IMG/VR virus record: IMGVR_UViG_3300034782_000062
Location: 118,771-182,770 of that record
Direction: 5' to 3' (one strand)
Origin: a virus
DNA: 64,000 bases
Positions 3,808-62,628 of this stretch are shown here, piece after piece. Position 1 is the first letter of the stretch. Every line of letters begins with the position of its first letter. The notes beneath the pieces are model-generated. The model saw only the letters and a list, made by a program, of their open reading frames with translations. It was not told where the DNA came from and made no database searches. The position numbers and the translations under genes are program-made.

Positions 3808-6800
3808 ATGAGTAACATTTTCGTCACAGACATCATCGGTACCGGAACCTATGCCGTTCCTACGGACGATACGGAGCTTGCCTCTGCGTCCTCAGGACTT
3901 AACACGTTGCTTGGTGGCGTCGCGAACTTGACCTACGATCGCGTTTTGGCGTGGGTCGAGGACTCCGGTGGTCCAGGTGGCGCTGAAGGCAATCGAACCC
4001 TGAACTGCCTCATCGAAAAATTCACCTATCTAACAGACGAATGTCCGTCTGAGGCCAACGTCGACACGATGATCGCCGCGATTGAGTCGACGCTTGAAGC
4101 CGATGCCAACATCACGTCCGTCGACAGGCAGGATGTACACATCTTCCAGGCGGGCGCCTACTTCTTGTGGAATCGAGACTCCGCCGGTGGGTTCCTCTAT
4201 CCGAACACGGCGACCGACGATGTCGCGGTTGGGCCGTTCGCAAGTCCAAACGGTAAGTGGTTCGACGATGGTGACCTCGTCCTGGGGACGGACGCCATGG
4301 TCGGCGCCGAGCAGCTCTATATCCTCGATGACGATGAGACGGCGAACAACGTTGGTGCGAGGGCTCGTACCGAGAAGGATTCGACCGGAACAAAAGCCGG
4401 ATGGACAGGCTTCGTTTCAGAGGTGCAGCACACAGGAGCAGGCCCCGGAACCCTCTATCTTGGCTTCGCTTCCTCGAACACCTACAACAACGCTGCTGCT
4501 GATATCGATGATGACATCGGATTTGTCTGTAACCCAACCGTCACGGCTGTCAATTCCTTCGATAGGCTGACTGGGTTCTTCTCACAGCCTACGATTGCGG
4601 CCGGGCAGACGGTCACTCGATATAAGGGTGTGTCGATCGATGGCATCAATGGCGCAGGCACGGTAACGACGTCGACAGGGATCGAGGTCAACGACGTCGG
4701 TCTCAACTCGACGACGACCTACGGAATCGAGATTGACGCTCAGACCGGAACGACAGCACGCGGCATCTACTGCGATGACTCCATCGAGCTGACGGGCACC
4801 ATCGTTATCGGAGAGAACGCCGACCATACGGTGGCTCCAGCGGCCGGAACAGGGCTGCTGTGGGTGCGGAGCGATACACCGAACCGGGTTATTTTCACAG
4901 ATGACGCCGGCACTGATCAGGTGCTCCAGTTTGGCTGGACCGAGTCCGAGGTCATCTACGTCGCAAAGTTCGGAAGTGACGCGAACGATGGCCAGTCGCT
5001 CACCGAGCCAAAGTTGACGGTTGGTGCGGCTATTACAGCCGCTGCGGCTCTGACTCCAAGCGCAACGAACCCGATCGTTATCTACGTATACCCAGGTGTC
5101 TACTCCGAGCAGATTGTTCTGTCGAGCGATTATGTATCGCTGTTCGGTGTTGGTGGTCCTGACAGCGTGATCATTGAAGACGATACGGATGCGAGCCAAG
5201 TCCTCAGGATGGGGGCTTGTGACAATATCGAGGTGCGAAACATTCACTTCCGTGGCATCACGAACAACGTTGACGCTATTACCTGTGCTCAATTCACACT
5301 GAACAACATTTTCAGGAATTGCAAGTTTACGTCAAAGGGGACCGGGCGATCGGAGCTTGATGGTGGGTTCGCAAGCAACCGCCTGGTCATGGATTTTTAT
5401 AACTGTGTATTCACACACGCGGACAATGATGGTGTGAACGATCCTGTCGCCATCTTTATGGATGACGCGACCCTCAACTTCAACGACTGCACCTTCGAGG
5501 GTCGAGGCACCGTGAATAACGGTGTCATCAGCGTTTACAAGAGCTGCAAGTTCAGAGCCGCGACAAGTGCAGCGGCGACGCCTATATGGACGTTTACTAG
5601 CGCGGTTACGATGCTGGGGTGTGACGCCGAAAACACCAACGTTGGTAACGTCTTCGAGCTTGATGTAGCTGGATGCCAATTCCTTGGTGGACGACTATGG
5701 GCGGGCAGTGATGCCTCGGCGCGCGAGCTTTCTTCGACATTCACAACAAAATGGAGGGTCGCCTGCTCCGGTGTCGTGATGAACAACGGCATGGCAGGCA
5801 CCATCTACCGGGACGAGCTGATTCACTACGTCGGTGACTCCGGGGACTGCGACTTCCACGTCTCGCTCGAAGCTGCTTGCGACGGCCTGCTCAACACAGG
5901 TGGGACCGTCTACCTCATGCGCGATGTGACGGTTGGCTCGAACATCGACAACCAGCATCAGTCTCTGACCATCGACGGGATGAACAACTACAGCATTGAC
6001 CGTGGAAGCGATGCGCTGTTGTTCGAGCAGAACGGCTTCGACCCCCAGGTCTTCACGCTGAAGAACGTCGAGATTATCCAGGGCCGGATCGAGTGGGACA
6101 GGGTACAGGCCGGAGTGCTTAACCTAGTACAGGTTACTGGTGGAACGCGCATCATTATCGACAACTACGTCGCCGGCAAAGAGGTCAATATCCAGAACTG
6201 CGATATCACCGTCGCGGCGACGGACCAGCCATTTATCGACTTCATCGGGGGCGCTGCCTGCCCGCTGATTATCCGGCAGTCGAGACTGGAGGGTAATGGT
6301 ACGCAGCCGGCGATCGATCTTGATGTCTCCGCGACAGCTCTGGATGTGTCCTACTCGGTGCTGACCGAGGGCTCAACGGCGGGGACACCGATCTCGAATC
6401 CTCCTGGCGCTGTATCGATGATCAGTCATCACAATCTTTACAGCACAAGCCCGTTCGGAGGTAACCTCTCAAACAGTGTTACGAACCCCTACGATTCTCC
6501 GATCGGATCGGCTGGAGCAAGCCCGTGGACGAGTGCCGCTGGCGTCATCTATCCGGCGACGGGTACCGATGATGTCGCAATTGGCTCGACGACGATGGCG
6601 GGAGCTGAGCGTCTCTACATCCTTGATGAGGATGAGACAGGGAATATCGTCGGGGCCAGGGCGCGAGTAGAGAAGGACTCGACGGGAACGAAGGCCCAGT
6701 GGACTGGGTATGTAGCCGAAGTGCAGCACACAGGCACAGGCGCTGGGACTCTGTACATTGGTTTCGCCTCGTCGAACACTTTCAATAATGCCTCGGCCGA

Positions 6801-49782: not shown

Positions 49783-49859
49783 CGGGCTGAGGGCTTGATG
49801 GTAAGCCGCCGCGTTCGGGACGCGGAGTAGTGTGGGTTCGACTCCCACCAGCCCGACCA
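49783..49859 (+). tRNA. tRNA-Pro(CGG)
   Basis: CCGCG-ttCGGga-CGCGG; CCA end. Confidence 0.85.
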
Positions 49860-49860
49860 T

Positions 49861-49935
49861 CGGGGTGTTGCGCAAGTGGTAGCGCGCCAGCTTTGGGAGC
49901 TGGAGGTTGCTGGTTCAAGTCCAGTCACTCCGACC
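49861..49935 (+). tRNA. tRNA-Pro(TGG)
   Basis: CCAGC-ttTGGga-GCTGG. Confidence 0.88.
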
Positions 49936-49941
49936 GATTCG

Positions 49942-50145
49942 ATCCGAATGCCAGAGGGATTACATCAACTAACGGTCCTAAGGTAGCGATGTTGCTTGCT
50001 GTAAAAAGACGCTGGCAGGCACTCAGCGACAGCGGTCACAACGAAAGCGGTGGCTGCGTTCCCAGTGCCGTAACCCTCTTCGGAGGAGCGGTGTACGGAG
50101 GCCGAAACGGGGCGCCGTGTGCTATCTCTTGCCCATTTGTCGGAT
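49942..50145 (+). ncRNA. Y-RNA-like element 1 (carries a 20-nt 23S rRNA match)
   Basis: 5' TCCGAATGC..GGGATTACAT / 3' ATCTCTT..TTTGTCGGA frame. Confidence 0.6.
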
Positions 50146-50174
50146 GGAATCATTTTTTCAAAAGGGGTGTAACT

Positions 50175-50729
50175 GTGTCTTCAGGTTATCGTTCAAAAAG
50201 AGCCCGTGCAGTATGTGCTGCGTTTGCTCGTGGTTATCGGGTTAGCGAGGATGGCGCACTGATTTCTCCTTCTGGGTTTGAGCTGTCGGATTCTTATAAA
50301 AACCAGAAGGGGTACAGGATGTTCAATATGCGCCTCCCGGGGGAGGCTGGAAATACAAGCGTTCCTGTTCATCAGCTCGCCGCCTTCCAAAAGTACGGCG
50401 ACAAAGCCATAGAAGAGGGGGTCGAGGTAAGGCATCTTGACGATAATAAAGAGAATAACTCTCCGAAAAATTTACTCATAGGAACGCGCTCCCAGAATAT
50501 GATGGATCGCTCTGAGGAGGTTCGGAGGCGATGCGCAAGAAAAGCCGCAAGGGCGAGAAGGAGACTAACGAATAAACAAGCTCAGCAGCTCATCGAAGAT
50601 AGAGCCGCCGGGAGCACATATCTGGGATTGGTTGAAAAATATGGCATAGCGAAAAGCACTATATCTTACATAGTTAATGGTCACATGTATCCAGAGTTGG
50701 ATAGGTCGTGTTTAGATATCCCGAAGTAG
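50175..50729 (+). CDS. HNH homing-endonuclease-like protein
   Basis: VHQLAAF..YG...EVRHLDDNKENN...NL..GTRSQN..D; C-terminal HTH-like segment; GTG start. Confidence 0.82.
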   Translation: MSSGYRSKRARAVCAAFARGYRVSEDGALISPSGFELSDSYKNQKGYRMFNMRLPGEAGNTSVPVHQLAAFQKYGDKAIEEGVEVRHLDDNKENNSPKNLLIGTRSQNMMDRSEEVRRRCARKAARARRRLTNKQAQQLIEDRAAGSTYLGLVEKYGIAKSTISYIVNGHMYPELDRSCLDIPK

Positions 50730-50809
50730 ACCACTATGGATGTGGGGTAGGCTGTAAACCTATCGTCGCCGCAAGGGGCCGTGAAAGTTCGATTCTTTCC
50801 TTCGGGACC
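50720..50809 (+). tRNA. tRNA-Tyr(GTA)
   Basis: TAGG-ctGTAaa-CCTA; long variable arm; acceptor CCCGAAG/CTTCGGG. Confidence 0.72.
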
Positions 50810-50956
50810 GGGAGAGTCTTTGTGGAGCCCTTCCACCGGGCCTGGTCGTAAGCCAGGTCGTTATAGGGGCGCCATAGTGCGCCTGGCGTGGAGCCATGGG
50901 AACCCACGAAACGGTGGTGGTAGACAAGGAGGTTCAAATCCTCCGGGCTCCCCCGT

Positions 50957-51055
50957 GCCCAAATGCTTGTGGGATTACATTGCGGCGATTGCAGCTAACG
51001 GGTTCGACTCCCGTTTGATAGCCCCGGTGGGCTTTTCTCGCACCTTTTGTTGGGC
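50957..51055 (+). ncRNA. Y-RNA-like element 2 (with T-arm)
   Basis: GCCCAAATGC..GGGATTACAT...ACGGGTTCGACTCCCGT...TTTGTTGGGC. Confidence 0.6.
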
Positions 51056-51059
51056 ATTT

Positions 51060-51136
51060 GCCACCGATGCCAAAGTGGTCGCGGCGCCAGGTTGTGGACC
51101 TGGTTTTAGGAGGTTCGAGTCCTCCCGGTGGTACCA
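51060..51136 (+). tRNA. tRNA-His(GTG)
   Basis: CCAGG-ttGTGga-CCTGG; CCA end. Confidence 0.8.
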
Positions 51137-51169
51137 ATGTGGTAGTATTCCCCCGTTCGGAGGGAAACC

Positions 51170-51751
51170 TTGGCCATCATTGACAAAAGAACGCCGAAGA
51201 CGGCGAACTCAGGAAATGCTCTTGCACGGTTTTTGTTCAACAAAGGGCTGATAAAGCCTGGTGAGAAGGTTCTCGACTTCGGCTCGGGATCGGGTCGCGT
51301 CGCGGTGCCGCTCTCGAAGCAGTGCACGGTGAAGGTGATCGAGGGCAACGAGGGGTGCCTGGCGAACCTGCTCGACTGTGGCTTCGAGAGGCCAGAGCCT
51401 GGCGAGAAGTTCGACGTCGCCATGGCCTTCTTCGTCTTTCAGCACAACACGCTGGAGAAGGTCAGGGCGATCACCCACTCCTTGTCGTACATGGCCAGGC
51501 GGCTAGTCTTCACCTACCCGACTCATGAGCTGCTCGCGCTTCGGCCGGGCAACAAGCTCAAGTGGGTGCCCGCGGCCGAGCTGAAGGAGCAGCCGATTCC
51601 GGACTGCAATCATCTCAGCGGCGTGCTTCACGAGGCTGAGCTTCCCACCCTGTTCGAGACCTCCGAGTTCGACGTCAGCACCCTTCGCTTTGTCGTGGCG
51701 CAGGCCATGGGCAAAGAACGCGTTCGCGAAATCAAGAGCAAGGTCCCGTAG
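51170..51751 (+). CDS. Class I SAM-dependent methyltransferase
   Basis: VLDFGSGSGR, FDVAMAFFVFQH; TTG start. Confidence 0.78.
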   Translation: MAIIDKRTPKTANSGNALARFLFNKGLIKPGEKVLDFGSGSGRVAVPLSKQCTVKVIEGNEGCLANLLDCGFERPEPGEKFDVAMAFFVFQHNTLEKVRAITHSLSYMARRLVFTYPTHELLALRPGNKLKWVPAAELKEQPIPDCNHLSGVLHEAELPTLFETSEFDVSTLRFVVAQAMGKERVREIKSKVP

Positions 51752-51814
51752 CTCAGGTGGAAGAGCGTTGGATTCCTAATCCAAAGGCCGTGAGTTCGAG
51801 CCTCACCGGGATCG
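51742..51814 (+). tRNA. tRNA-Arg(CCT)
   Basis: TTGGA-ttCCTaa-TCCAA. Confidence 0.88.
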
Positions 51815-51882
51815 CCTCACCAGGGGAAAACCGCGAGCTGGCAGATAAGCGTGTACACCGCTTTCGGTCACTTCCCCGCCAT

Positions 51883-51958
51883 AGGGCAGTAGCTTTAATG
51901 GGAAAGCACCGGATTCCAAATCCGGCGATTGGGGGTTCGAGTCCCTCCTGCCCTGCCA
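51883..51958 (+). tRNA. tRNA-Trp(CCA)
   Basis: CCGGA-ttCCAaa-TCCGG; CCA end. Confidence 0.9.
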
Positions 51959-51959
51959 T

Positions 51960-52035
51960 CCCTCGTGGGTCCGCTGGGTGGACTCCTGACTGTCTATCAG
52001 GGTAGAGGCGAGTTCGATTCTCGCACGGGGGGCCA
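51960..52035 (+). tRNA. tRNA-Asp(GTC), second copy
   Basis: CCTGA-ctGTCta-TCAGG; CCA end. Confidence 0.8.
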
Positions 52036-52041
52036 ACGTTC

Positions 52042-52116
52042 GCTCGGTTCGTCTATCGGTTAGGACACTGGCCTTTCACGCCAGTAAGAGGAGTTCGATT
52101 CTCCTACCGAGCACCA
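52042..52116 (+). tRNA. tRNA-Glu(TTC)
   Basis: CTGGC-ctTTCac-GCCAG; CCA end. Confidence 0.9.
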
Positions 52117-52117
52117 T

Positions 52118-52194
52118 GCCCCGGTGGTCTAGTTGGTTTAGGACACTCGCCTGATAAGCGAGAGGTGGTCGGTTCAAGTCCGACCCGGGGTACC
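52118..52194 (+). tRNA. tRNA-Ile(GAT)
   Basis: CTCGC-ctGATaa-GCGAG. Confidence 0.88.
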
Positions 52195-52204
52195 GGAGGT
52201 TGTC

Positions 52205-52576
52205 ATGAGACGGTACAAACAGATTGGCACCCTGACGTCGTTTACGACTGAGGTCGTGCTGAAAGAGCCCGTCCTGGTGACGGATCTCAAAAAGGCTTTT
52301 CAGGATGCCCAGTGGCTTCAGACCTGGGAGGAAGTCTTCTCCAACGGCGTCATCCGATGCGACTACACCAGCCTGAAATCTGGAAATGTTATTGACGTGG
52401 ACATGGTTCCGTTGGCCGATTCCGAGCTGATCGGGGGCCTGCGGATGCTCGCCCGAGAAGAAGGCGTCCTGGAGACGGTCGATGAAGTCATCGGAGAGAC
52501 GAAGGAGCCGATGAAAGTGCACAAGGCAGAGATTGGCGTGATTCAGCGAAACGATCGCGCTGCCCCGCTAGCATAA
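52205..52576 (+). CDS. Hypothetical protein
   Basis: GGAGG RBS, 123 aa; ends inside tRNA-Ile(TAT). Confidence 0.65.
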   Translation: MRRYKQIGTLTSFTTEVVLKEPVLVTDLKKAFQDAQWLQTWEEVFSNGVIRCDYTSLKSGNVIDVDMVPLADSELIGGLRMLAREEGVLETVDEVIGETKEPMKVHKAEIGVIQRNDRAAPLA

Positions 52577-52634
52577 CGGTGAATGCACCGGTCTTATAAA
52601 CCGGCGATTCCGGGTTCAAATCCCGGGTGGGGCA
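52562..52634 (+). tRNA. tRNA-Ile(TAT)
   Basis: CCGGT-ctTATaa-ACCGG; A73. Confidence 0.8.
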
Positions 52635-52894
52635 CTGAGAGGGAGGAAGTCGTCGCGCGAAGGAGCAGCACCTGGCATTCCTGTAGTGTCAGGCGCCCTC
52701 GCATAGGCCTAGCGAGGAAAAGTCGTTCCATGCATATCGCGTAAAGTGCGGCTCAAACGAAGGAACTTGCTGAACTGATAACTAGGCGTTTGAGACAGGG
52801 ATTCGAGACGCTCCGTGCATGAGTGTCTTGCAGGCGGTTTGCGCAAATCGGCTGCCCTGGGGTACAGGCAGCTCGTCCTCACGACCCTCTCTTT

Positions 52895-52969
52895 GCTCGG
52901 TTAGTTCAGTCGGAAGAACGCCTGCTCGACGCGCAGGAGGCCGTTGGTTCAAATCCAACACCGAGCACC
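52895..52969 (+). tRNA. tRNA-Val(GAC)
   Basis: CCTGC-tcGACgc-GCAGG (C33 atypical). Confidence 0.78.
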
Positions 52970-53113
52970 GACGAAGCTCCAGAAGCATTTCTGGGTCCCA
53001 CCGCCCAAGACTTGCGCGGTTAGAGGAGGCAACAGGTGGAGTTGTCAGTTAGAGTGGCGCCACTTATTTTCTGGCAGCAGCTATCCCTCACGCGCTCTGG
53101 AACTTCGTCGTTT

Positions 53114-53188
53114 GGTCCCGTAGCTCAACTGGAAGAGCGTTGGTATCACACGCCAGAGGCCCCCGGTTCAACTCCGGGCGGGACCACC
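53114..53188 (+). tRNA. tRNA-Val(CAC)
   Basis: TTGGT-atCACac-GCCAG. Confidence 0.75.
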
Positions 53189-53195
53189 CTTTTTT

Positions 53196-53270
53196 GGGTC
53201 CATAGCTCAGTTGGGAGAGCGCCGCGTTCGCAATGCGGAGGCCGAGGGTTCAAGTCCCTCTGGATCCACC
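53196..53270 (+). tRNA. tRNA-Ala(CGC)
   Basis: CCGCG-ttCGCaa-TGCGG; G3:U70. Confidence 0.88.
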
Positions 53271-53345
53271 TGGAAAAGTCGGGAGGCACCACCCTCAAAG
53301 GGAGCCAGTGCCAGGTGAACGGAGAGGGTGCCCGACCCAGAGTTT

Positions 53346-53422
53346 GGGGCCATAGCTCAGTCATGGGAGAGCGCTACACTGGCAGTGTAGAGGTCGAGGG
53401 TTCGATCCCCTCTGGTTCCACC
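53346..53422 (+). tRNA. tRNA-Ala(GGC)
   Basis: CTACA-ctGGCag-TGTAG; G3:U70. Confidence 0.88.
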
Positions 53423-53642
53423 CAAGCCTTGCAACGTCATGATGCGCGCTGTGGGCGTATGGTAAGAGGTCTCGTCACATGCTGACGGGGCGTGGGGCCG
53501 CGACCAGGGCTAGGTCTGGGGAGAGAGAGGGCTCCAATCATCGGGTTAGCCGAGCGCAGGGTTCCCACCACAGGGGCCTGCGTGTGGGAGCTGGGTGGGG
53601 AATCCAGCCATGGCGTCGTTGGGGCTTGGAACCAAGAAGACA

Positions 53643-53921
53643 ATGCATATTTCAGATAGGACAAAAGAGGCACCAGAGATCGACGCGAAGATGCTCTGGT
53701 ATGAGAACTGGTACGACGGTCCAACGGACGGCGTCTGCGAGTTCGAGGGAGAGAAATTCTGGTTTGTGTGGACCGATGGTGATGATGATCACACTCGTAT
53801 CTACGCCGTCACCAGGATTGATCCGGAGGTGTTGGCCGAGATGGTTCGGCGGCACGAGATCTACCGCGACATCTGCGGCCCGCACACTGATTACGGAATC
53901 AAGTGCGAAGGCGGCGGATGA
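53643..53921 (+). CDS. Hypothetical protein, possibly extending through TGA to 54041
   Basis: WYDGP..GVC...G..FWF...HTDY; the frame stays open for 39 codons after the TGA. Confidence 0.6.
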   Translation: MHISDRTKEAPEIDAKMLWYENWYDGPTDGVCEFEGEKFWFVWTDGDDDHTRIYAVTRIDPEVLAEMVRRHEIYRDICGPHTDYGIKCEGGG

Positions 53922-54045
53922 GCCTTCCCGACCGACGAGCAGTTGGCTCGTTTTGAAGAGGTCTCGAAGGATTGGCCGGAACTTGAGCCTCTCCCTGACC
54001 CTGAGAAAGACGGAGAAGTGATCGGAAAAATCAAGTGGTAAAATC

Positions 54046-54118
54046 AGCCCTGTAGCTCAACTGGAGGAGCGCCAGTCTTACAAACTGGAGGTCGTCGGTT
54101 CGACTCCGACCGGGGCTA
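54046..54118 (+). tRNA. tRNA-Val(TAC)
   Basis: CCAGT-ctTACaa-ACTGG. Confidence 0.88.
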
Positions 54119-54128
54119 CTGAGCACAT

Positions 54129-54201
54129 GGGCTCATAGCTCAACTGGGAGAGCACCTGCCTTGCACGCAGGAGGCTGCCGGTTCGATCCCGGCTGGGTCC
54201 A
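54129..54201 (+). tRNA. tRNA-Ala(TGC)
   Basis: CCTGC-ctTGCac-GCAGG; G3:U70. Confidence 0.9.
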
Positions 54202-54293
54202 CAGAAACCGATAGAAGACAGAAGCGCTGTGACGGGGGGAGCACCGGCTCTTCGATGATGGTCGTGCTCGCCACGCGAGGAGCCGCCCCCCGA

Positions 54294-54575
54294 TCAGCCA
54301 AGCTTCTCTTGGAGCTGACTCCTGATCGCAGACTCTACCGCCTGCGAAAAATTGGCGAGAAATCCGCCAAGCGTGAGAGCAACTTCGACGCTGCCGCTGA
54401 GGATTTGGATGTGCCCTTCCACGCCTGGTCCTGAAAGACTAAAAAGCGTTTCGGAGTTCCATTCGCCTACGAGGTTGTAACGCGGACCTAGCTCCTCGTA
54501 GACCTTATTTATGGCGTCGATGGCTTCTGCTCTACCGATACTCATCGGTTGCGAGATTGAAAGAGTCTTTGACAT
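54294..54575 (-). CDS. Polyhydroxyalkanoic-acid-system-like small protein
   Basis: 93 aa; W....F...G.GV.G.I.I....VEV.L.LG..L...VE..IR..L.EKL pattern; only antisense gene in the RNA island. Confidence 0.55.
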   Translation of the reverse strand: MSKTLSISQPMSIGRAEAIDAINKVYEELGPRYNLVGEWNSETLFSLSGPGVEGHIQILSGSVEVALTLGGFLANFSQAVESAIRSQLQEKLG

Positions 54576-54620
54576 ACCGGAATCATAGCACAATGTGCAA
54601 ATGCGTCCCCAGGACGAAAT

Positions 54621-54695
54621 GCTACCGTGGCACAGTTGGAAGCGCACCTCCTTGGTAAGGAGGAGGTCCCCGGTTCGATCCCGGGCGGTAGCTCC
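54621..54695 (+). tRNA. tRNA-Thr(GGT)
   Basis: CCTCC-ttGGTaa-GGAGG. Confidence 0.9.
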
Positions 54696-54717
54696 GCAAA
54701 ACAAAAAGGGGTTTTCA

Positions 54718-55821
54718 ATGGGTAGCACAGACGCAACCTGCGCCTTGTCCAACTTGCCGATCGGCTACAAGGATGAGGTAATGTGGTTGATGCTCGTCAG
54801 GGGAGTCAACGTCACGGAGACGAACTTGGCGGGTCTTCACCATCAACCGTGGGACCTATGGTTCGTGCGGAACCTTCCTGTTCGAGCCACTTACGACACC
54901 TACACGAGGATCGAGGATTGGGAGGAGGGGTTGATCCTCGACACGACGCTTCAGATGCTTCGCGAGGATCTACTCCCCTTCGAGTTCAAGAAGAGTGAAA
55001 GGTTTTCCTACGAGGATTTGCATGGATGTCCAGCCCCATGCGTGGAGAACCTAAAGATGGAGAACCTGGTCCGCTGGCTCCCGGCTGGTGACGTCAGGGT
55101 CGATCGTCGCCATGACGAGCGACAGAGTGCGGCTCGAATGATCGAGTTGGGTCACCTTTCAGACAAAGAGCGCGACGCGTATCGCAAGCGCATGGACCTT
55201 CCTCCCGAGCCGCACTACGTGACCCAGGCCCTTGTTAGACGAGACGTCTGGGAAGCTCTGTGCGAGATGAAGTGGGATAACCAGGTCGGTCGCATGATCG
55301 GACTCGAAGACATGATGAAAGGGGTCGACGAGCTGATCGCCGTGGCCAAACGGATTCGCAGCGTGCCGAAGAGATACCAAGACCTGGAAGTGCACCTGAT
55401 GTACAGCGGCCAGTGTGAGTACGCGAGCTACATCGCGTCGACGGGAGGCTGCTCTCCCTACGGCGTCGCGGTGGCTCACACCATGCGTTGGCTGGTCAGG
55501 CGGTGTGCTGAAGGAAAAATCGAAGCCCTCGAAGACCTCCGTCCCGCCTTAGGGAGAGGTGCTCAGGTCGCGCACATCGAAAGAATGATGCGGTCGCTCA
55601 GGCTCATGTGGCATCCGCAGCTCTACCAGCAGCGTGCCGACTTCGACACCTGTATGGAGTTTCACCTTCGCTGCGCTCGCATCGCGTTCGACGTCGAGTC
55701 TGACAACATCGAGAAGGCGCAGGAAGAGTTCGACCCGGCCGACGAGGACGACCGCGAAGAGATCGAACACCAGCAGAAACGCTATTCCGATCTTCAACGA
55801 TTGCGGCAGTTTGGGCCGTAG
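54718..55821 (+). CDS. Hypothetical protein
   Basis: 367 aa; MGS.DATC.LS.LPI..D.V start. Confidence 0.7.
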   Translation: MGSTDATCALSNLPIGYKDEVMWLMLVRGVNVTETNLAGLHHQPWDLWFVRNLPVRATYDTYTRIEDWEEGLILDTTLQMLREDLLPFEFKKSERFSYEDLHGCPAPCVENLKMENLVRWLPAGDVRVDRRHDERQSAARMIELGHLSDKERDAYRKRMDLPPEPHYVTQALVRRDVWEALCEMKWDNQVGRMIGLEDMMKGVDELIAVAKRIRSVPKRYQDLEVHLMYSGQCEYASYIASTGGCSPYGVAVAHTMRWLVRRCAEGKIEALEDLRPALGRGAQVAHIERMMRSLRLMWHPQLYQQRADFDTCMEFHLRCARIAFDVESDNIEKAQEEFDPADEDDREEIEHQQKRYSDLQRLRQFGP

Positions 55822-55946
55822 TCGAAAAAAATCCGAAAAAATCGCAGAACAACTGTCAGAAAGGGCGCCCTTGGTGCGTCCTGGTAGACAGGTAGGCACA
55901 AACGACCTTCACTTTTTGGCCCGAGAGGGCATGCAAGGAGGCTCCG

Positions 55947-57533
55947 ATGGCAAACCGAGCACTGTTCAAGAACAAGACTCCGGGACGCATGGTCCCGGAA
56001 ACCACCACCAAGAACGAGGCAGGCGGAAAGGCCTACGCGTTCAGCGACGAGCACGCGCTCGCGCAGTACGCGGCCACCGGTTGCATCAACGGCACCTACT
56101 ACGCGTCGGCGCAGGACCAGCTCGATACGGTCCTTGGCATGGCGAAGAAGTGCTCTTCGGAGTTCATCGCCAAGACGGCGCTGTGGGTCAGGACCCAGGG
56201 GTTCATGAAGGACATGCCGGCGCTCCTGTGCTGCGTTCTCGCAGCACGGAAGGACGAAGAGTCCAGGGCGCTCCTGACCGCCGTCTTTCCCAGGGTCATC
56301 GACAACGGAAAGATGCTCATGAACTTCGTTCAGATCATGCGCTCTGGCGCGGTCGGACGAAAGAGCATGGGATCTCTCCCGAGGCGCCTGGTCCGTAACT
56401 GGCTCAACGAGCACGACGGCAACTGGCTGTTCCGCAACTCGGTCGGTCAGAAGCCCTCGATGGGTGACATCGTGAAGATGGTCCACCCGAAGGCGAAGGA
56501 CGCGGAGCACGATGCACTCTTCGGCTATTTCATCAAGAAGGATCTCGACGGGAAGGCCGAGGCTCTCCCGCCGCTGGTCAAGGAGTTCGAGGCGTGGAAG
56601 CTCGACCGCGATCTCCCGCTGCCGAAGGTGCCCTTCCAGCTCCTGACCAACGAGCAGCTTTCTGACGAGCAGTGGGCGACCATCATCGAGAACGGCAACT
56701 GGCACTTCACCAGGATGAACCTGAACACGGCCGCGAGGCACAACGTGTTCACGATTCGTCCGGAGCTGGTAGAGGTCGTGGCCAAGAGGCTCGCTGACCC
56801 AGCGATAATCCAGAAGGTGAAGGTCTTCCCGTACCAGATCCTGATGACCTACAAGGCGGCGAGCGAGAGCGCTCCTCGCCCGGTCATCAACGCGCTGCAC
56901 GACGCACTCGAAGAGTCGGTGAAGAACATCCCGGCCATCGAGGGTGACGTTGTGGTCTTTCCCGACGTGTCGGCGTCGATGAGCAGCCCGGTAACGGGTG
57001 GCGGCGGGTGGAGCACCCCTTCGACGAAGGTGAGCTGCATCGACGTCGCGGCGCTCTTCTCGGCAGCCATCCTCCGGATGAACCCGAACGCGACGATCGT
57101 CCCGATCGACACGAAAGTTCATCCGACCTTCAAGATGGAGCCGAGAGACTCCGTCATGACCAACGCCAAGAACCTCGGCGCGTTCCGCGGCGGCGGAACC
57201 TCTCTCGGAAGCGCAATCCAGTGGATGAACGGCAAGAAGATGGACGCGGACGTGATCATCTTCGTCAGCGACAACCAGAGCTGGGCGGATCCGTGGGGGG
57301 ACGGACGTGGAACCCTCATGCTGAGCGAGTTCCGCAAGGTCCAGAAGCGCAGGCCGAACGCGAAGCTCATCTGCATCGACGTCCAGCCTTACGGGAACAC
57401 CCAGGCTGGCGACGAGAAGCACGCTGTGCTCAACGTCGGTGGGTGGAGCGACCGGGTCTTCACGGTGATCGACTCCTTCCTGAAGGGCGACCCGAAGGGG
57501 TGGGTTGACACCATCAAGGCCGTCGAGGTATAA
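55947..57533 (+). CDS. rsr: Ro60/TROVE-domain RNA-binding protein with vWA domain
   Basis: NEAGGKAY, GTYYAS, GFMKDMPA, RNL-like RMNL, VFPYQ, vWA MIDAS DVSASMS, SDNQ, LICIDV.PY, VGGWSD. Confidence 0.93.
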   Translation: MANRALFKNKTPGRMVPETTTKNEAGGKAYAFSDEHALAQYAATGCINGTYYASAQDQLDTVLGMAKKCSSEFIAKTALWVRTQGFMKDMPALLCCVLAARKDEESRALLTAVFPRVIDNGKMLMNFVQIMRSGAVGRKSMGSLPRRLVRNWLNEHDGNWLFRNSVGQKPSMGDIVKMVHPKAKDAEHDALFGYFIKKDLDGKAEALPPLVKEFEAWKLDRDLPLPKVPFQLLTNEQLSDEQWATIIENGNWHFTRMNLNTAARHNVFTIRPELVEVVAKRLADPAIIQKVKVFPYQILMTYKAASESAPRPVINALHDALEESVKNIPAIEGDVVVFPDVSASMSSPVTGGGGWSTPSTKVSCIDVAALFSAAILRMNPNATIVPIDTKVHPTFKMEPRDSVMTNAKNLGAFRGGGTSLGSAIQWMNGKKMDADVIIFVSDNQSWADPWGDGRGTLMLSEFRKVQKRRPNAKLICIDVQPYGNTQAGDEKHAVLNVGGWSDRVFTVIDSFLKGDPKGWVDTIKAVEV

Positions 57534-57546
57534 CAGATGCAACATC

Positions 57547-57604
57547 GCCCAAATGCCTCCGTGACTACATCTCGTACATGACGTCACGGGAAAACTTGTT
57601 GGGT
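57547..57604 (+). ncRNA. Y-RNA-like element 3 (minimal; 14 nt after the rsr stop)
   Basis: GCCCAAATGC.TCCGTGA-CTACAT...TCACGGGA..CTTGTTGGGT. Confidence 0.65.
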
Positions 57605-57891
57605 GTTGTTCTTTGAGAACATTATGCCAACGGAAGGCTACAATGATAGGCTGGGGGCGTTGAAAGGCGCCCCCAGCCGAATGTGGGGCCGAACAGCAGG
57701 CAACAACGGGTAAGGAAGAGAGCTGTCTAGTACTGCCCGTGGCCCAACCATTTCGTAGTAGCAAAGCCGGTTAGCTGTGCTGGCAAAAGCAGCCTGCGGA
57801 GGCGCTGAGAGCGTCCGATGATGCAGGAAGCAGGATTTCGTAAGTGCCTGCGCCACAGCGCCCAGTACTGTGCGTCAGACGCGGACCCGTG

Positions 57892-57992
57892 GTCCGAATG
57901 CCCGTGGGACTACATTACAATCAAAGCGTAAAAACACATGCTACTGCATGCCGTCTCGCACCCCTTGTCGCCCACACTGTCTGTTGTCTGAC
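57892..57992 (+). ncRNA. Y-RNA-like element 4
   Basis: GTCCGAATGC..TGGGACTACAT...TCTCGCA...TTGTC. Confidence 0.55.
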
Positions 57993-58098
57993 ATGGCTGT
58001 TGGTTCCCTTTCGGGGCCTTCAGCCACCACGCCTCCGAGAGACGCGAGAGAGTGCCTCGTGCCATGGATACGCCCTGGCCGGAGACGTTCCCTTTGAG

Positions 58099-58178
58099 TG
58101 CCAAATGCCGTGGTGACTACATCGACTGGTACTCGATTGGGCCTGGATAGGCCTAATGTCACTGCACTCTTGTTGGTG
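58099..58178 (+). ncRNA. Y-RNA-like element 5
   Basis: TGCCAAATGC.GTGGTGACTACAT...GTCACTGCAC.CTTGTTGGTG. Confidence 0.6.
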
Positions 58179-58211
58179 CTCACACTTAGCTTTTTCCTCA
58201 CGAGGCCCCCA

Positions 58212-58658
58212 ATGACATATGAGATGCAGAATGAGCCAGGGAAGGGCCGCTGCGAACGCTGCGGACTTTTTCTGGATACGGTGGAGAGCGCCTTCGATTC
58301 GAGGCAGACGGGCGAACGCATTTGCGAGCGCTGCGCCTGGATGGAGCACGTCAAGACAGGTCAGGCTCCGATTGGAAAGAAGGTTGCGAGTGCTTGCGCG
58401 GACCCAACACATCTGTGTTATGGGTTTGTTTTTGAGGACGAGCACCCGCCGCTCACGGACTGCGTCAAACGTGGTGACGAGGCTGAGCTGCTCGAAGTCT
58501 TCAGGGCTCAGGTTCATCAGGATTGGGACGTCCGGGCGCTCATCGAGATGAAGCGAGCGATCCGTGACAAGGCCGAGGAAGGAAACGACCCCCTGTGGCA
58601 GCAGAAGCTGGAGGTCATCGATCAAGAGCTGGCTGGCCGCGGAGTTTTTGTGGGATAG
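58212..58658 (+). CDS. Hypothetical protein with N-terminal zinc finger
   Basis: CERC...CERC. Confidence 0.55.
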   Translation: MTYEMQNEPGKGRCERCGLFLDTVESAFDSRQTGERICERCAWMEHVKTGQAPIGKKVASACADPTHLCYGFVFEDEHPPLTDCVKRGDEAELLEVFRAQVHQDWDVRALIEMKRAIRDKAEEGNDPLWQQKLEVIDQELAGRGVFVG

Positions 58659-58664
58659 AAAACA

Positions 58665-58769
58665 AGCCGAATGCTTTGCGGGATTACATTTTGGTTCGAC
58701 TCCAAGTGGCGGCTTTTTATGCCGCCAGGCGCGTTGGGCGCTTCAAGATCTCGCGCCCACTTGTCGGCT
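58665..58769 (+). ncRNA. Y-RNA-like element 6 (T-arm-like insert)
   Basis: AGCCGAATGC..GCGGGATTACAT.TTGGTTCGACTCCAA...TCTCGC..CTTGTCGGCT. Confidence 0.65.
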
Positions 58770-59180
58770 TAAATTTTTCCTCAGCCCTTTGCGAGGTGAG
58801 GGTTGAATCACCGAGGCCCCGCTGGTGGCGATCCAGACCTTTTGCGAGGTGTAGGCAACACCAAGTCCGTGCCGGTGGATTAAAGGCTTTGGCCGTCATG
58901 CCGAGAAATCTGTCTGCCTTCGGCCTCGGTGGCATCGAATACGAGGTGGCGGAGCCTGGTCGTGCTCATGTCGTCCTAGGGACACGCATGAGAGAGGAAG
59001 GGCAGCGAGGCCCCCCAGGTATCGTATGGGTGTGACGGATGAAACACTCTTTCGCATCCGCCAGGGGATCAACCCAGTACCGCCTTATTTTTTAGGAGGT
59101 TCCTGGAAACGGGACGAGGCGACTGAGCGATGCGTAGTGTCGCTACGGCCGAGGAGAAAGGTTCGATTCCCTCTCATTTA

Positions 59181-59286
59181 TGCCGAATGCAGGCGGGACT
59201 ACATTGACTCCAACATTGTCAAGCCAGGGTTCGACTCCCTGTCGTATAGGGGCACGGCTGCCCATTTCTCGTCAAACTTGTCGGCA
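59181..59286 (+). ncRNA. Y-RNA-like element 7 (T-arm)
   Basis: TGCCGAATGC.GGCGGGACTACAT...CAGGGTTCGACTCCCTG...TCTCGTC..CTTGTCGGCA. Confidence 0.65.
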
Positions 59287-59290
59287 TTTT

Positions 59291-59366
59291 GCCTGTGAGA
59301 CCGAAGTGGCCGAGGTGCCAGCCTTCCAAGCTGGTTGAAGTGGGTTCGAGTCCCATCGCAGGCTCC
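59291..59366 (+). tRNA. tRNA-Gly(TCC)
   Basis: CCAGC-ctTCCaa-GCTGG. Confidence 0.82.
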
Positions 59367-59505
59367 GGCTGAATGCCTAGTAGGGATTACATTGGACTAT
59401 GGATCCCGTAGTTGCAGGTTCGAATCCTGCCCACGCCGCTCTTATGGCGTGGTAGCCCAATTGGTAGAGGCGCGTAAACTGTTTCTCTACGCCTTTTTGT
59501 CAGCC
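59367..59505 (+). ncRNA. Y-RNA-like element 8 (YrlA-type, circularly permuted tRNA domain)
   Basis: T-arm GCAGGTTCGAATCCTGC, loop-closed acceptor CCACGCC/GGCGTGG, then D-arm, inside the GGCTGAATGC/TTGTCAGCC frame. Confidence 0.75.
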
Positions 59506-59509
59506 GATT

Positions 59510-59584
59510 GCCGGTGAAGCCAAAGTGGTGCGGCGCCACGTTGCCAACGTGGAGAAGTGGGTTCAACTCCCATCACCGGCTCCA
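59510..59584 (+). tRNA. tRNA-Gly(GCC)
   Basis: CCACG-ttGCCaa-CGTGG; CCA end. Confidence 0.88.
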
Positions 59585-59646
59585 GCCCGAATGCTTGTCG
59601 TGAGTACATTAGGGTATGTATACCTCACGGCGTTTCCTTGTCGGGC
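59585..59646 (+). ncRNA. Y-RNA-like element 9 (minimal)
   Basis: GCCCGAATGC..TCGTGAGTACAT...CTCACGG..CCTTGTCGGGC. Confidence 0.62.
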
Positions 59647-59656
59647 AAAAATTCAT

Positions 59657-59980
59657 AGGCTGAATGCCCAGTGGGGAGTACATCGCATGCCAAGCGCGAG
59701 GCCCAGGTTCGATCCCTGGTCCCGTCTCAACGCCGGTCTCAGTGGAATGACCTCTGTAGGGCGGAAACGTGGTGGAAGGCGATGACTGATTTGATGGAAG
59801 TGCGATCGGCTTCTTTCTCATATCGATCGTTCGGAAGCTCCGTGATGAGCCCTTCACCGGGTTCAAGTCCCGGCGGCGTCGAATTTTCACTCGGTTCGAA
59901 ACCGAGCGCCGTGACTTTAGACGGGATGGTGTAGTGGTAGCACACGAAAACGTTCCTCTCTACGCCTTTCTTGTCAGCCT
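59657..59980 (+). ncRNA. Y-RNA-like element 10 (permuted tRNA domain with ~200-nt insert)
   Basis: AGGCTGAATGC...CAGGTTCGATCCCTG-GTCCCGTCT...AGACGGGAT-GGTGTAGTGGTAGCAC...CTTGTCAGCCT. Confidence 0.65.
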
Positions 59981-59984
59981 ATTT

Positions 59985-60062
59985 GGCCCTGTCGTCTAGT
60001 CAGGTTTAGGACGCCGGCCTCTCACGCCGGAAACGTGGGGTTCAAATCCCCCCAGGGTCACC
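59985..60062 (+). tRNA. tRNA-Glu(CTC)
   Basis: CCGGC-ctCTCac-GCCGG. Confidence 0.88.
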
Positions 60063-60088
60063 GCCCACCGGGGGCACTCGTGAAAAAT

Positions 60089-60230
60089 ACGAATGCCGCT
60101 CGGGTTTACATCTGCGTAACTCACGTAGAGACAGGCTCCGTGAAAGCCGTAAGGCATAAGCGGTAGTCGGGCATCGGGCGCCGCGCGGCGCATGCGCTTC
60201 GCGGTGTGGTAACTCGCGCACCTTTGTCGT
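60089..60230 (+). ncRNA. Y-RNA-like element 11
   Basis: ACGAATGC.GCTCGGGTTTACAT...AACTCGCGC..TTTGTCGT. Confidence 0.55.
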
Positions 60231-60297
60231 CAAACCTTAGGCGCGCGTGTCTCCGGTGGGTATCAATTCGTTCACAAAATCAAAAAGGGGAATTGTC

Positions 60298-60876
60298 ATG
60301 GACCGCATCATCTGTGGGAAGAAGACGCACAAGGTCGGTGTGGCGCCGACGATCGTTCTCGTGCGTCCCAAGTACCCGCACAACATCGGCGCCGCGGTTC
60401 GAGCGGCTTCATGCTTTGGAGTCGAGCAGGTCTGGTTCACTGGCGATCGAATCAAACTGGAGGCCGAGAAGCGCATCCCTCGCGAGGAGCGCATGAAGGG
60501 CTACGCTGGGGTGGACATCATCCAGCATGACCTTCCTATCGAGCGCTTCGAGCAGGTGACGCCGGTCGCGATCGAGGTGCGGCCGAATTCCGAGCTGCTC
60601 ACTGAGTTTGAGCATCCTGAGGACGCGATGTATATCTTTGGTCCTGAGGACGGATCGATCCCAAAGCAGCTTCTCACCATGTGCCATCGTTTTGTGATGA
60701 TTCCGACAAAGCACTGCACCAACCTGTCAGCGGCTGTCTACCTGGTGCTCTATGATCGCTTGCTCAAACGTCAATGGAGCGGGCTCGAAGAGGCCAAGCC
60801 ACCGTCACAATGTCTCGATGAAGACCGGGGCTGGTGGAGCTATGATGACGTCGACGGAGAGATGCCGTTTCAGTAG
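60298..60876 (+). CDS. SpoU/TrmH-family (SPOUT) RNA methyltransferase
   Basis: LVRPKYPHNIGAAVRAASCFG, YIFGPEDG, IP...CTNLSAAVYLVLYDR. Confidence 0.85.
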   Translation: MDRIICGKKTHKVGVAPTIVLVRPKYPHNIGAAVRAASCFGVEQVWFTGDRIKLEAEKRIPREERMKGYAGVDIIQHDLPIERFEQVTPVAIEVRPNSELLTEFEHPEDAMYIFGPEDGSIPKQLLTMCHRFVMIPTKHCTNLSAAVYLVLYDRLLKRQWSGLEEAKPPSQCLDEDRGWWSYDDVDGEMPFQ

Positions 60877-60951
60877 GCTGTCGTGGCTCAATAGGCAGAG
60901 CAGCGCATTCGTAATGCGCAGGTTTCCGGTTCGATTCCGGACGACAGCTCC
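60877..60951 (+). tRNA. tRNA-Thr(CGT)
   Basis: GCGCA-ttCGTaa-TGCGC. Confidence 0.9.
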
Positions 60952-60980
60952 GTTCGAACACAAATCAAAAAGGGGAACAG

Positions 60981-61361
60981 ATGACTGCACAAATGCACAA
61001 TAGAACGCATTCGATCTTCGTGCTCTTGGTTGGTGGCGAGGTCGTCTACACGACGAGCGACTCTAACGACATCATGCGTGAAGCTCGCGAGTCGGTCTTC
61101 CAGTACATATCCGACCACAAACGTCACGACTTGCCGCTCAAAATGACCGACGAAGAGCTTCGATGGATGGATATCGAGGTTCACGAGCTACTCGGTGAGA
61201 GGAGTCAGGTGGCGCTGCCTTATCAGCCATGGGTCGATGACTACTATCGCGAGATGAAAGAGGGCGAGCGCCAGGACGAGGAGCGTGAGTACAAACACTT
61301 CGTCGAGCTGCGCCGGAAGTGGGAAAATCGTTTCCAGTCCGAGCAGAGGGTTAATAAGTAG
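60981..61361 (+). CDS. Hypothetical protein
   Basis: AAAAAGGGGA RBS, 126 aa. Confidence 0.6.
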   Translation: MTAQMHNRTHSIFVLLVGGEVVYTTSDSNDIMREARESVFQYISDHKRHDLPLKMTDEELRWMDIEVHELLGERSQVALPYQPWVDDYYREMKEGERQDEEREYKHFVELRRKWENRFQSEQRVNK

Positions 61362-61366
61362 AACAG

Positions 61367-61441
61367 GCCACCGTAGCTCAACTGGCAGAGCGGCTGATTT
61401 GTAATCAGCAGGCTCCCGGTTCGATTCCGGGCGGTGGCTCC
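61367..61441 (+). tRNA. tRNA-Thr(TGT)
   Basis: GCTGA-ttTGTaa-TCAGC. Confidence 0.92.
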
Positions 61442-61442
61442 T

Positions 61443-61517
61443 GGCCGAATGCTAGAGGGATTACATTGCATTCGTCTCTTAAACGAAAAACGCACAGTCT
61501 CTCAATTCTTGTCGGCC
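61443..61517 (+). ncRNA. Y-RNA-like element 12 (carries a Lys-CUU anticodon arm)
   Basis: GGCCGAATGC.AGAGGGATTACAT..TTCGT-CTCTTAA-ACGAA..GTCTCTC..CTTGTCGGCC. Confidence 0.65.
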
Positions 61518-61543
61518 ACCAATTTTTGTGATTTCTTTACGAC

Positions 61544-62293
61544 GTGACGGAGCCGCTCCAATCCGCAAAGATGGTGCCCAGTGACGTCGGCCCTGAGCAG
61601 GGCTGGCACCTCCGCGAAAGAATCAACATCGGTGGGCTTACCTGTCTCGTCTACGACGTCGAGGACGACTGGCGCCCAAAGGAAGTGACAGGTGTCAAAG
61701 GTATAAAAAAAATCCGAAAGGGTCGCGGCAAAGTCAAGTGGGATGAGCAACCGCTTGGCGCGGTGACGGACAAAGAGATCGCCGAGGAAGTCGGCGTCGT
61801 TCCGTCCGCGGTGCTCAAAGCGCGGCGCAAGCGCGGCGTCAAGAGCAAGCACCCCGCACGGACAAAACTGAAAATCGATTGGGATGAACAGCCGCTCGGC
61901 AAGATGCTCGATCAAGAACTAGCCGAAAGACTCGACGTCGATCCGTCTACAGTGAGCCGCGAACGACGAAAACGGAAGATCCCAAGAAAATTCGTCCGGA
62001 AGACGAAGACACACAATAAGGGCATCGACTGGGATGCTCAACCGCTCGGCGAAGTATCGGATGAGAGCTTGGCCCGAAAGCTCAAGGTCAATCCCAAGTC
62101 CGTCGCGAGTGCTCGTCGAAGGCGAAACATTTCTCCCTGGCAAGAGAAGAAAAAGATTGTTTGGGAGCACCAGCCCCTCGGTGAAATATCCGACGCGGAC
62201 ATCGCGAGGGGGCTCGGAATAGATGCCGGGACTGTGACGGTCGCACGGAACAAGCTCGGCATCCCACCCTACAAGAGACCCAAGAAAAAATAG
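61544..62293 (+). CDS. Repeat HTH-like DNA-binding protein
   Basis: Four ~45-aa repeats WD.QPLG...D...A..L.V....V...R....I. Confidence 0.72.
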   Translation: MTEPLQSAKMVPSDVGPEQGWHLRERINIGGLTCLVYDVEDDWRPKEVTGVKGIKKIRKGRGKVKWDEQPLGAVTDKEIAEEVGVVPSAVLKARRKRGVKSKHPARTKLKIDWDEQPLGKMLDQELAERLDVDPSTVSRERRKRKIPRKFVRKTKTHNKGIDWDAQPLGEVSDESLARKLKVNPKSVASARRRRNISPWQEKKKIVWEHQPLGEISDADIARGLGIDAGTVTVARNKLGIPPYKRPKKK

Positions 62294-62429
62294 GCTGAAT
62301 GCTGAGGGGACTACATCACCCCGGGGGTCGCAGGTTCGAGTCCTGTCGGCGGCGCAAGTCGCTGTAGCTCAGTTGGAAGAGCACCGGGCCACGGGCGAAG
62401 CCCATGCGTCTCGTCGATCTTGTCAGCCT
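62292..62429 (+). ncRNA. Y-RNA-like element 13 (YrlA-type, permuted tRNA domain)
   Basis: GCAGGTTCGAGTCCTGT-CGGCGGC-gcaa-GTCGCTG-TA-GCTCAGTTGGAAGAGC inside the AGGCTGAATGC/CTTGTCAGCCT frame. Confidence 0.78.
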
Positions 62430-62439
62430 TTAGTTCTCG

Positions 62440-62628
62440 TGCCGAATGCGCTCGGGATTACATAGTGCACGCCAGCCGAAAGGCAACCAGGTGGTCGGCT
62501 TTTGGCCACCCGGCGATGACCAGCTTGCGATTCGCCGTGAGCCCCGGCACTTCACCGGGGACACAAACTCCGCGTTTTGAGGGGAGACCCTCTGTGCATG
62601 TCGCGGTATCTCGGGAGAATTGTCGGCA
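62440..62628 (+). ncRNA. Y-RNA-like element 14
   Basis: TGCCGAATGC.CTCGGGATTACAT...TATCTCGGG..TTGTCGGCA. Confidence 0.6.

Follow-up and report, generated by a model that had tools for sequence, protein, structure and literature searches.

We analysed a window of 64 kb, which represents the final 64 kb of a 182,770-bp IMG/VR virus record recovered from wetland metagenomes. The window encodes about 31-32 tRNA genes and one tmRNA, and among these genes lies an RNA of 204 nt on the + strand (49942-50145), here called Y-like element 1, which is composed of a handle and an rRNA-like body. A tRNA-Pro(UGG) gene (49861-49935, + strand) ends 6 nt 5' of this RNA, an arrangement that is kept in relatives. 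On the other side an HNH_3 open reading frame, which in its short form starts at GTG 50175 (50175-50729, + strand), runs into a tRNA-Tyr gene (50720-50807, + strand), the stop codon overlapping the 5' end of the tRNA gene (insertion 50146-50729). A 575-nt HNH insertion separates Y-like element 1 from tRNA-Tyr in the window. The presumed protein partner of the RNA is encoded 5.8 kb further downstream, amid about 14 Y-type handles: it is a Ro60 (TROVE/vWA) protein (55947-57533, + strand; Pfam vWA_Ro60 at 3e-14 and a weak TROVE match) with thousands of Ro60 homologues, the closest of which, at 59-75% identity, are found on metagenome contigs. A gene for a SpoU-family RNA methyltransferase and a second SAM methyltransferase gene (60247-60876, 51170-51751) are also located within the array of tRNA and Y RNA genes.

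Identity with 23S rRNA and the neighboring HNH gene

The 20-mer TAACGGTCCTAAGGTAGCGA at 49970-49989 on the + strand is identical to positions 1917-1936 of E. coli 23S rRNA (20/20). It is preceded directly by C-AAC, and a TTACAT motif (49960-49965) is located four bases upstream. The matching segment of 23S rRNA, U1917-A1936, starts within the 3' part of the H69 loop (U1917-A1919), takes in the H69 3' strand as well as the C1925-G1929 pair, and then passes along the junction strand GUAGCGA, which leads into H70/H71 according to the E. coli 23S sequence and the structure line of the Rfam LSU model. No second match to the 20-mer was found in the window even with 3 mismatches, and it matches in 0 of 100 shuffles. 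When the 64-kb window was compared with the E. coli rrn operon using blastn, the 20-mer was the sole outlier (E 4.8e-4, against 0.37 for the next match), and together with its flanks it aligns at 26 of 29 positions (49970-49998 with 23S 1917-1945). Apart from it, blastn against E. coli 16S, 23S and 5S rRNA returned no rRNA-like stretch above background, a search by which diverged mimics could be missed. The 20-nt identity that the preliminary description had placed here, after TTACAT and AAC, was borne out and is unique in the window.

An exact match as short as this one might in principle be a chance match or mark an assembly chimera with an rRNA gene. We set this explanation aside as practically excluded in view of the shuffle and blastn statistics, of independent contigs and of the recurrence of the segment in the same context across collections. 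A contig assembled independently from a wetland run spans 49879-50682 with zero differences, so that the segment is not an artefact of misassembly, and the same core is found in 122 distinct non-rRNA contexts of other assemblies, as was to be checked according to the preliminary description. A second sample holds a different member of the family. In a wetland metatranscriptome we found one contig of 151 nt that covers only the interior of the RNA (49966-50116) with two C>T differences and might derive from DNA carry-over; it gives a weak hint of a stable small RNA.

It had also been suggested that the segment might be related to the HNH gene directly downstream, in which case it could be left over from a homing site (the I-CeuI region) that travelled with the endonuclease gene, or else be the 5' leader or N-terminal coding sequence of that gene. 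The HNH_3 reading frame indeed begins 30 nt downstream of the RNA, the frame is open from 49830 to 50729, and ATG 49989 lies in frame with it. However, we rejected ATG 49989 as the start of a long open reading frame, because the HNH_3 protein is similar to phage homing endonucleases of the free-standing type, and the alignments with these homologues start only at residue ~16-23 of its short form. The upstream stretch, moreover, changes by compensatory base pairs and not by codon. In one related phage contig (L010) the gene order is tRNA-Pro(UGG), the RNA, tRNA-Tyr directly 3' of it (10 nt on) and tRNA-His, with no HNH gene, and the relatives L006, L051 and L005 likewise carry no HNH gene at the RNA locus. 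The HNH genes encoded near cellular members of the family belong to another family and show no similarity to the HNH_3 gene of the window. Given that relatives carry the RNA without an HNH gene, and that no intron model matches, the segment qualifies neither as a homing-endonuclease target nor as an intron remnant. Judging from gene order and homology, the HNH gene is a phage-specific insertion unrelated to the RNA, and we consider a link between the two very improbable. In one wetland run, contigs break exactly at both HNH flanks and the flanking contigs have ~2x depth, a weak hint that the insertion is polymorphic. The tRNA array of the related phage contig L010 contains a HEARO RNA (5750-5999; 99 bits, above the Rfam threshold).

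A Y-RNA handle and a covarying body in permuted 23S order

The ends of the 204-nt RNA pair into a Y-RNA handle. Its 5' strand (49942-49965, + strand; AUCCGAAUGCC-AGAGGGAUUACAU) contains the CGAA-N-G motif and was delineated by motif recurrence, alignment with YrlA and covariation, while the 3' strand (50119-50145, + strand), which ends in GUGCUAUCUCUUGCCCAUUUGUCGGAU, pairs with 49942-49965 and shows compensatory changes in relatives. The handle motif proper (the CGAAUG motif) is CCGAAUGC at 49944-49951, and 13 of 13 pairs of the two outer handle helices show compensatory changes. As part of a 22-nt motif, CCGAAUGC-N5-GGGAyUACAU, it recurs in about 14 copies between 49944 and 62463, all on the + strand. 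In the neighboring element 2 (50956-51059) it can be aligned with the 5'-terminal part of the Rfam YrlA consensus at 24.7 bits, which is below threshold, and further sub-threshold matches to YrlA/YrlB are located at 59180-59652 and 62322-62386. The handle agrees with the YrlA consensus and with the published CGAA motif (PMC4201824; PMC12135203). Together with the Ro60 open reading frame, the handle supports the earlier proposal that the rRNA-identical segment is carried on a molecule of Y-RNA type near a Ro60 gene.

The remaining RNAs with Y-type handles (about 14 in total within 49942-62500) are interspersed among tRNA genes on either side of the Ro60 gene. Several of them carry T-arm-like GGUUCGA hairpins along with sub-threshold YrlA/YrlB scores (50956-51059, 59180-59290, 59366-59509, 59579-59652 and 62322-62386), and others consist of a minimal stem (e.g. 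57547-57604 and 61443-61517). Three resemblances to 23S are leads only and may be due to chance: in another Y-like element, positions 59634-59645 on the 3' strand of the handle match 23S 1939-1950 exactly over 12 nt (UUCCUUGUCGGG), the handle (CCGAAUGC ... UUGUCGG) resembles H71 and its flanks in permuted order, and the 5' ends of metazoan Y RNAs (GGUCCGAAGGUAGUGA) resemble the 23S core GGUCCUAAGGUAGCGA.

The body of Y-like element 1 matches the structure of the Rfam LSU model helix by helix. The 20 nt identical to 23S (49970-49989, + strand) contribute CGGUC (49973-49977, + strand), the 3' strand of an H69-like stem, which pairs with the 5' strand GGCCG (50100-50104, + strand) just as C1920-C1924 pairs with G1906-G1910 in 23S rRNA; the AAAC immediately 3' of GGCCG corresponds to the beginning of the H69 loop, as determined from alignment and pairing. 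Across 61 sequences 95% of the cells in this stem are paired. The changes are confined to the partner strand and leave the stem paired (G-C to G-U, U-G to U-A), and there are zero double compensatory changes, because the 5'-proximal strand is the invariant core. The C1925-G1929 pair is also kept and GUAGCGA is unpaired as in 23S, so that the pairing is compatible with the mimicry that had been proposed. Next comes a hairpin at the position of H71 (49991-50022, + strand), whose loop UAAAAAGACGCUG is conserved in the phage subclass and whose stem covaries, with G-C in the window against C-G in three relatives and compensatory changes in 8 of 8 pairs in the 61-sequence alignment. An H67-like stem (50032-50057, + strand; compensatory changes in 9 of 9 pairs) is capped by a C-GAAA-G tetraloop where the remaining 23S would follow, and the sequences on either side of it (AGCGA.. 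and ..CUGCG-UUCCCAGUGCC) correspond to 23S 1968-75 and 1829-44 in the alignment. The H68 base helices (50060-50099, + strand; 13 pairs covary) keep both 23S bulges, while a CCUC-UUCG-GAGG hairpin takes the place of the long H68 arm; the pair 1835-1905 is U-A in the element versus G-C in 23S.

Read from 5' to 3', the RNA thus contains the handle 5' strand, a remnant of the H69 loop, the H69 3' strand, the C1925-G1929 pair, GUAGCGA, the hairpin at the H71 position, UCAGCGA, the GAAA-capped H67 stem, the H68 base with the UUCG hairpin, the H69 5' strand and the handle 3' strand. The H69 stem is re-formed through long-range pairing, and the handle is attached within the H69 loop. Besides the alignment that includes the 20-mer, local alignment with 23S gives 20 of 27 matching positions for 50048-50073 (23S 1822-1848) and 16 of 20 for 50089-50108 (23S 1895-1914); these two 3'-side matches are weak when taken singly, and the three are collinear only after circular permutation of 23S. 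As an unbiased approach, a profile HMM was made from only those columns of the family alignment that lie 3' of the 20-mer and was searched against the whole 5.7-kb rrn operon, where its single match is 23S 1827-1920 (E 8.6e-4). On the evidence of alignment and pairing, the body is a circularly permuted miniature of helices 67-71 of 23S domain IV. The rRNA fragment of the preliminary description therefore stands as a 20-nt identity, but its extent was understated, as a body of ~150 nt copies helices 67-71 in permuted order. Since the body retains neither the H71 loop nor, in the subclass of the window, the H69 tip, it is unable to reproduce bridge B2a and part of B3.

Support for this fold comes entirely from comparative data; in single-sequence folding the free energy cannot be told apart from that of shuffles (z -1.07). 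For the four closest sequences (the window, L051, L006 and L010), 93.1% of pair cells are standard compared to 82.9% in shuffles and 37-46% in slid controls, and 16 pairs are changed on both sides, a number reached by 0 of 500 shuffles. Among 61 distinct family members 94.9% of cells are paired (70.8% in shuffles and 27-36% in slid controls), with compensatory double changes in 46 of 52 pairs, although these pair counts are inflated because the 61-sequence alignment was fitted to the covariance model R1. R1 was built from four sequences including the element of the window, which it matches over the full model length with 208.8 bits, a score that follows by construction. The model matches 70 + 47 loci, mostly full-length, and in the phage genome Y-like element 1 is the one place that passes E 0.001.

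Two pairings suggested by RNAalifold for the four sequences were treated separately. The pairing GGUCC/GGACU was rejected, as it is broken in the window and the change is compensated in the competing hairpin at the H71 position. The pairing UAGCG/CGCUG was kept as a possible pseudoknot: in the phage subclass the loop UAAAAAGACGCUG (50002-50014) holds CGCUG, which is complementary to UAGCG (49984-49988) of the 20-mer, and in L051 UAGUG keeps the pairing via G-U, so a loop-junction pseudoknot may be formed.

Conservation across phyla and linkage to Ro60 genes

Searches of GenBank phage DNA returned no relative of the element or of the surrounding 10-kb stretch, and the exact junction pattern and Ro60 peptide patterns gave no matches in IMG/VR. 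A pattern combining the handle end with the core (TACAT, 0-14 nt, ACGGTCCTAAGGTAG) identified 2 IMG/VR phage contigs, 81 metagenome loci and 70 loci in species-representative genomes; the 270-kb contig that encodes a 66%-identical Ro60 (P0004, on L006) also carries this handle-plus-core. After deduplication, 7 instances proved to be true 23S genes and 122 to be distinct non-rRNA instances, all of which have the Y-type 5' strand followed by (r)ACGGUCCUAAGGUAGCGA in diverged surroundings. The carriers are phages, Planctomycetota, Myxococcota and Cyanobacteria. Named genomes are mostly from Planctomycetota (Pirellulaceae, Gimesia, Stieleria, Aeoliella), and the others include the Myxococcota Polyangiaceae, Labilithrix and Sandaracinus and the cyanobacteria Nostoc, Rivularia, Calothrix and Okeania.

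An 18-nt core is invariant in most instances, with GGUAG followed by GCGA in 89 of 122, whereas flanks and stems diverge. Because the core is invariant while its flanks diverge, the region of the 20-mer is under selection. In other family members up to 29 nt are identical to 23S. Cellular members show additional matches to 23S, namely a GNRA-capped H71-like hairpin, GAAUGGCG (1968-75), an H72-like GUCUC..GAGAC hairpin, UGCCCrCUGC (1834-43) and GGUAAgAGCGGCCGUAA (1896-1913). In 31 of the 122 instances the H69 tip is intact (CGUAACUAUrACG) and the handle is located at the base of H69. There are thus two permutation points, one in the H69 loop and one at the H69 base, and the junction is identical with both, which speaks for selection on the junction itself.

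A Ro60 gene is encoded on the same strand, at a median distance of ~0.9 kb downstream, in 49 of the 102 loci with a length of at least 3 kb. In the chromosome of a planctomycete of the Pirellulaceae, a YrlA-like RNA is located between the 23S-like Y RNA and Ro60. In Nostocales genomes (L121:142-3658, L133, L148 and L155) a second gene for ribosomal protein L7/L12 comes after the 23S-like Y RNA, and the gene after that encodes a divergent Ro60, a vWA protein of 477 aa (phmmer to the Ro60 of phage phiLo, E 4e-4). Three Nostoc genomes have two L12 genes each, with the canonical copy elsewhere, and in L121 the gene next after the divergent Ro60 encodes EF-Ts. At 18 loci of Planctomycetota and Myxococcota the 23S-like Y RNA and Ro60 have a PF01844 HNH gene of ~180-200 aa in their vicinity, located on the same strand (e.g. 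L143:1299-1892 and L135:4571-5101); its product is unrelated to the HNH_3 protein of the window. One of these loci, L135 (8 kb, from a 'Proteobacteria bacterium' MAG), carries ~25 tRNA genes in addition to Ro60, HNH and the Y RNA. It has the appearance of phage or prophage DNA that was assigned to a bacterial MAG during binning, and therefore some of the instances counted as cellular may be viral.

With regard to classification, the RNA has the paired ends and the CGAA(N)G internal loop on the 5' strand that characterize Y RNAs, and it is encoded near a Ro60/TROVE gene, both in the window and in the 49 of 102 related loci mentioned above. The YrlA model (RF02553) does not match 49942-50145 even at E 10, which places the RNA outside YrlA. 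The LSU_rRNA covariance model likewise gives no match at E 10; in view of this result, of the permuted order and of the lack of any other rRNA-like stretch in the window, the element is neither a 23S gene nor a decayed fragment of one. No family of Rfam 15 covers the element in the window or in four related loci, and no rRNA-mimic Y RNA was described in the full-text literature that we searched, although a published mention may exist. We conclude that the 204-nt RNA is very probably a conserved Y RNA with a body that mimics rRNA.

Possible role and comparison with known systems

Y RNAs are partners of Ro60 with bodies that imitate tRNA. Helices 67-71 of 23S rRNA supply the central inter-subunit RNA bridges B2a, B2b, B2c, B3 and B7a. 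In our preferred explanation, the 204-nt RNA would be a Y RNA that serves as the partner of the Ro60 ring protein of the phage. It would probably be excised from the transcript of the tRNA array by tRNA-processing enzymes, and its paired ends would form the handle to which Ro60 is predicted to bind. The body could then act as an effector or targeting module, recognized as rRNA by a binder of 23S H67-H71; candidate partners are the interface of the 30S subunit and a factor or enzyme that binds or modifies H67-H71. In this way the body might tether Ro60, and any nuclease recruited by it, to the partner, or keep the partner off ribosomes, and a tethering body would parallel the tRNA-like body of YrlA Y RNAs. 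We assign a probability of roughly 0.6 to this explanation as a whole, that is, to a Y RNA with a 23S-core body as its effector module. That the partner is specifically the 30S subunit or an interface-binding factor is a tentative suggestion that we consider less likely than not.

The preliminary description interpreted the rRNA segment as a decoy. In such a case the body would soak up an enzyme that attacks or modifies H69-H71 of 23S, for example a ribotoxin of host defence, and thereby shield the ribosomes during infection. The mimicry is real at the level of sequence, the phage is heavily equipped for translation (~31-32 tRNAs, tmRNA and methyltransferases), and toxins that cut in the H69-H71 region do exist, as MazF-mt6 cuts UUCCU at 1939-1943. 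However, the UUCCU site beside the 20-mer is not kept in the element (it reads UUGCU in the window) and is deleted in most members of the family, and a decoy would have no need for a Ro60 handle. The class is, moreover, equally common in bacterial chromosomes, inside their own Ro60 operons; it follows that it did not arise as a phage counter-defence, which makes a decoy the less economical proposal. We regard it as unlikely.

Similarly unlikely, in our estimation, is a scaffold of rRNA ancestry without functional mimicry, in which a captured piece of 23S would simply serve as a stable, nuclease-resistant Y RNA body and be conserved solely for the sake of its own fold. The helices covary freely, as expected of a purely structural role, and the RNA has lost the H68 arm, the H71 loop and often also the H69 tip. 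A scaffold of this kind does not account well for a single-stranded or junction stretch of 18 nt that, despite the drift of paired regions, has stayed identical to rRNA in phages and in three or more bacterial phyla, or for the two permutation points (H69 loop and H69 base) that keep the same junction.

Returning to the targeting module, a more specific and rather improbable version of it would be that a Ro60-Y ribonucleoprotein docks on the interface face of the 30S subunit via the folded 50S bridge core (B2b, B2c, B3 and B7a), which would put the surveillance ring and a nuclease on free small subunits or block subunit joining. In bacteria such a particle might act in ribosome quality control or turnover, in jumbo phages it might reshape the ribosome pool of the host, and in the Nostocales the L7/L12 paralogue might be part of the same particle. 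More generally, a second and widespread class of Y RNAs that copies the subunit-interface core would tie surveillance by Ro60 directly to the ribosome, and jumbo phages would carry a ribosome-directed ribonucleoprotein module beside their sets of tRNA and tmRNA. The conserved 18-nt core and the ~150-nt body provide a defined bait for pull-down of the partner. The class may also supply Y RNAs in cyanobacteria and delta-proteobacteria, where Chen et al. found few YrlA RNAs (PMC4201824).

Among known systems, the closest are YrlA and YrlB, the Y RNAs of bacteria and phages to which Rsr/Ro60 binds (RF02553, RF02565; Chen et al. 2014, PMC4201824). They likewise form a handle from paired ends with a CGAA-N-G internal loop, are encoded near Ro60 and, in phages, often in arrays and among tRNA genes, and are modular, with a handle and a body modelled on another RNA. 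Through Y RNAs, Ro60 is tethered to further components and access to its cavity is gated, and YrlA bodies mimic tRNA and are substrates of tRNA enzymes (PMC4201824). The body of Y-like element 1 differs in that it corresponds to 23S H67-H71, has no T or D arms and is about twice as long. In the second group of systems, Yrn1 with Rsr-PNPase (RYPER) of Deinococcus radiodurans and the Ro60 of Thermus phage phiLo with Yrl1/Yrl2 (PMC12135203), the model is that the body of the Y RNA tethers Ro60 and gates the ring. A phage Ro60 uses the CGAA handle to bind Y-like RNAs of the phage and is able to form an assembly with PNPase of the host (PMC12135203). In these systems PNPase is the partner and is reached via a simple stem-loop or tRNA-like end, whereas the body of element 1 is a copy of an rRNA domain. 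A role of D. radiodurans Rsr in 23S rRNA maturation and in starvation-induced rRNA decay is cited in PMC4201824.

Domain IV of 23S rRNA itself (H67-H71, E. coli 1829-1975) shares with the element the helix order, the bulges of the H68 base, the H69 stem and the C1925-G1929 pair. The element differs in being permuted (closed at H67 and opened at H69), in its truncated H68 and replaced H71 loop, and in being a free-standing 204-nt RNA in a phage without rRNA genes. Finally, the mRNA leaders of ribosomal proteins (L10, L1) and the promoter mimic 6S RNA can be considered. The former are cis-regulatory for their own proteins, whereas the element stands alone with a Ro60 handle and has no ribosomal protein gene 3' of it in the phage, but in all of these cases a small RNA copies a binding site of a large machine.
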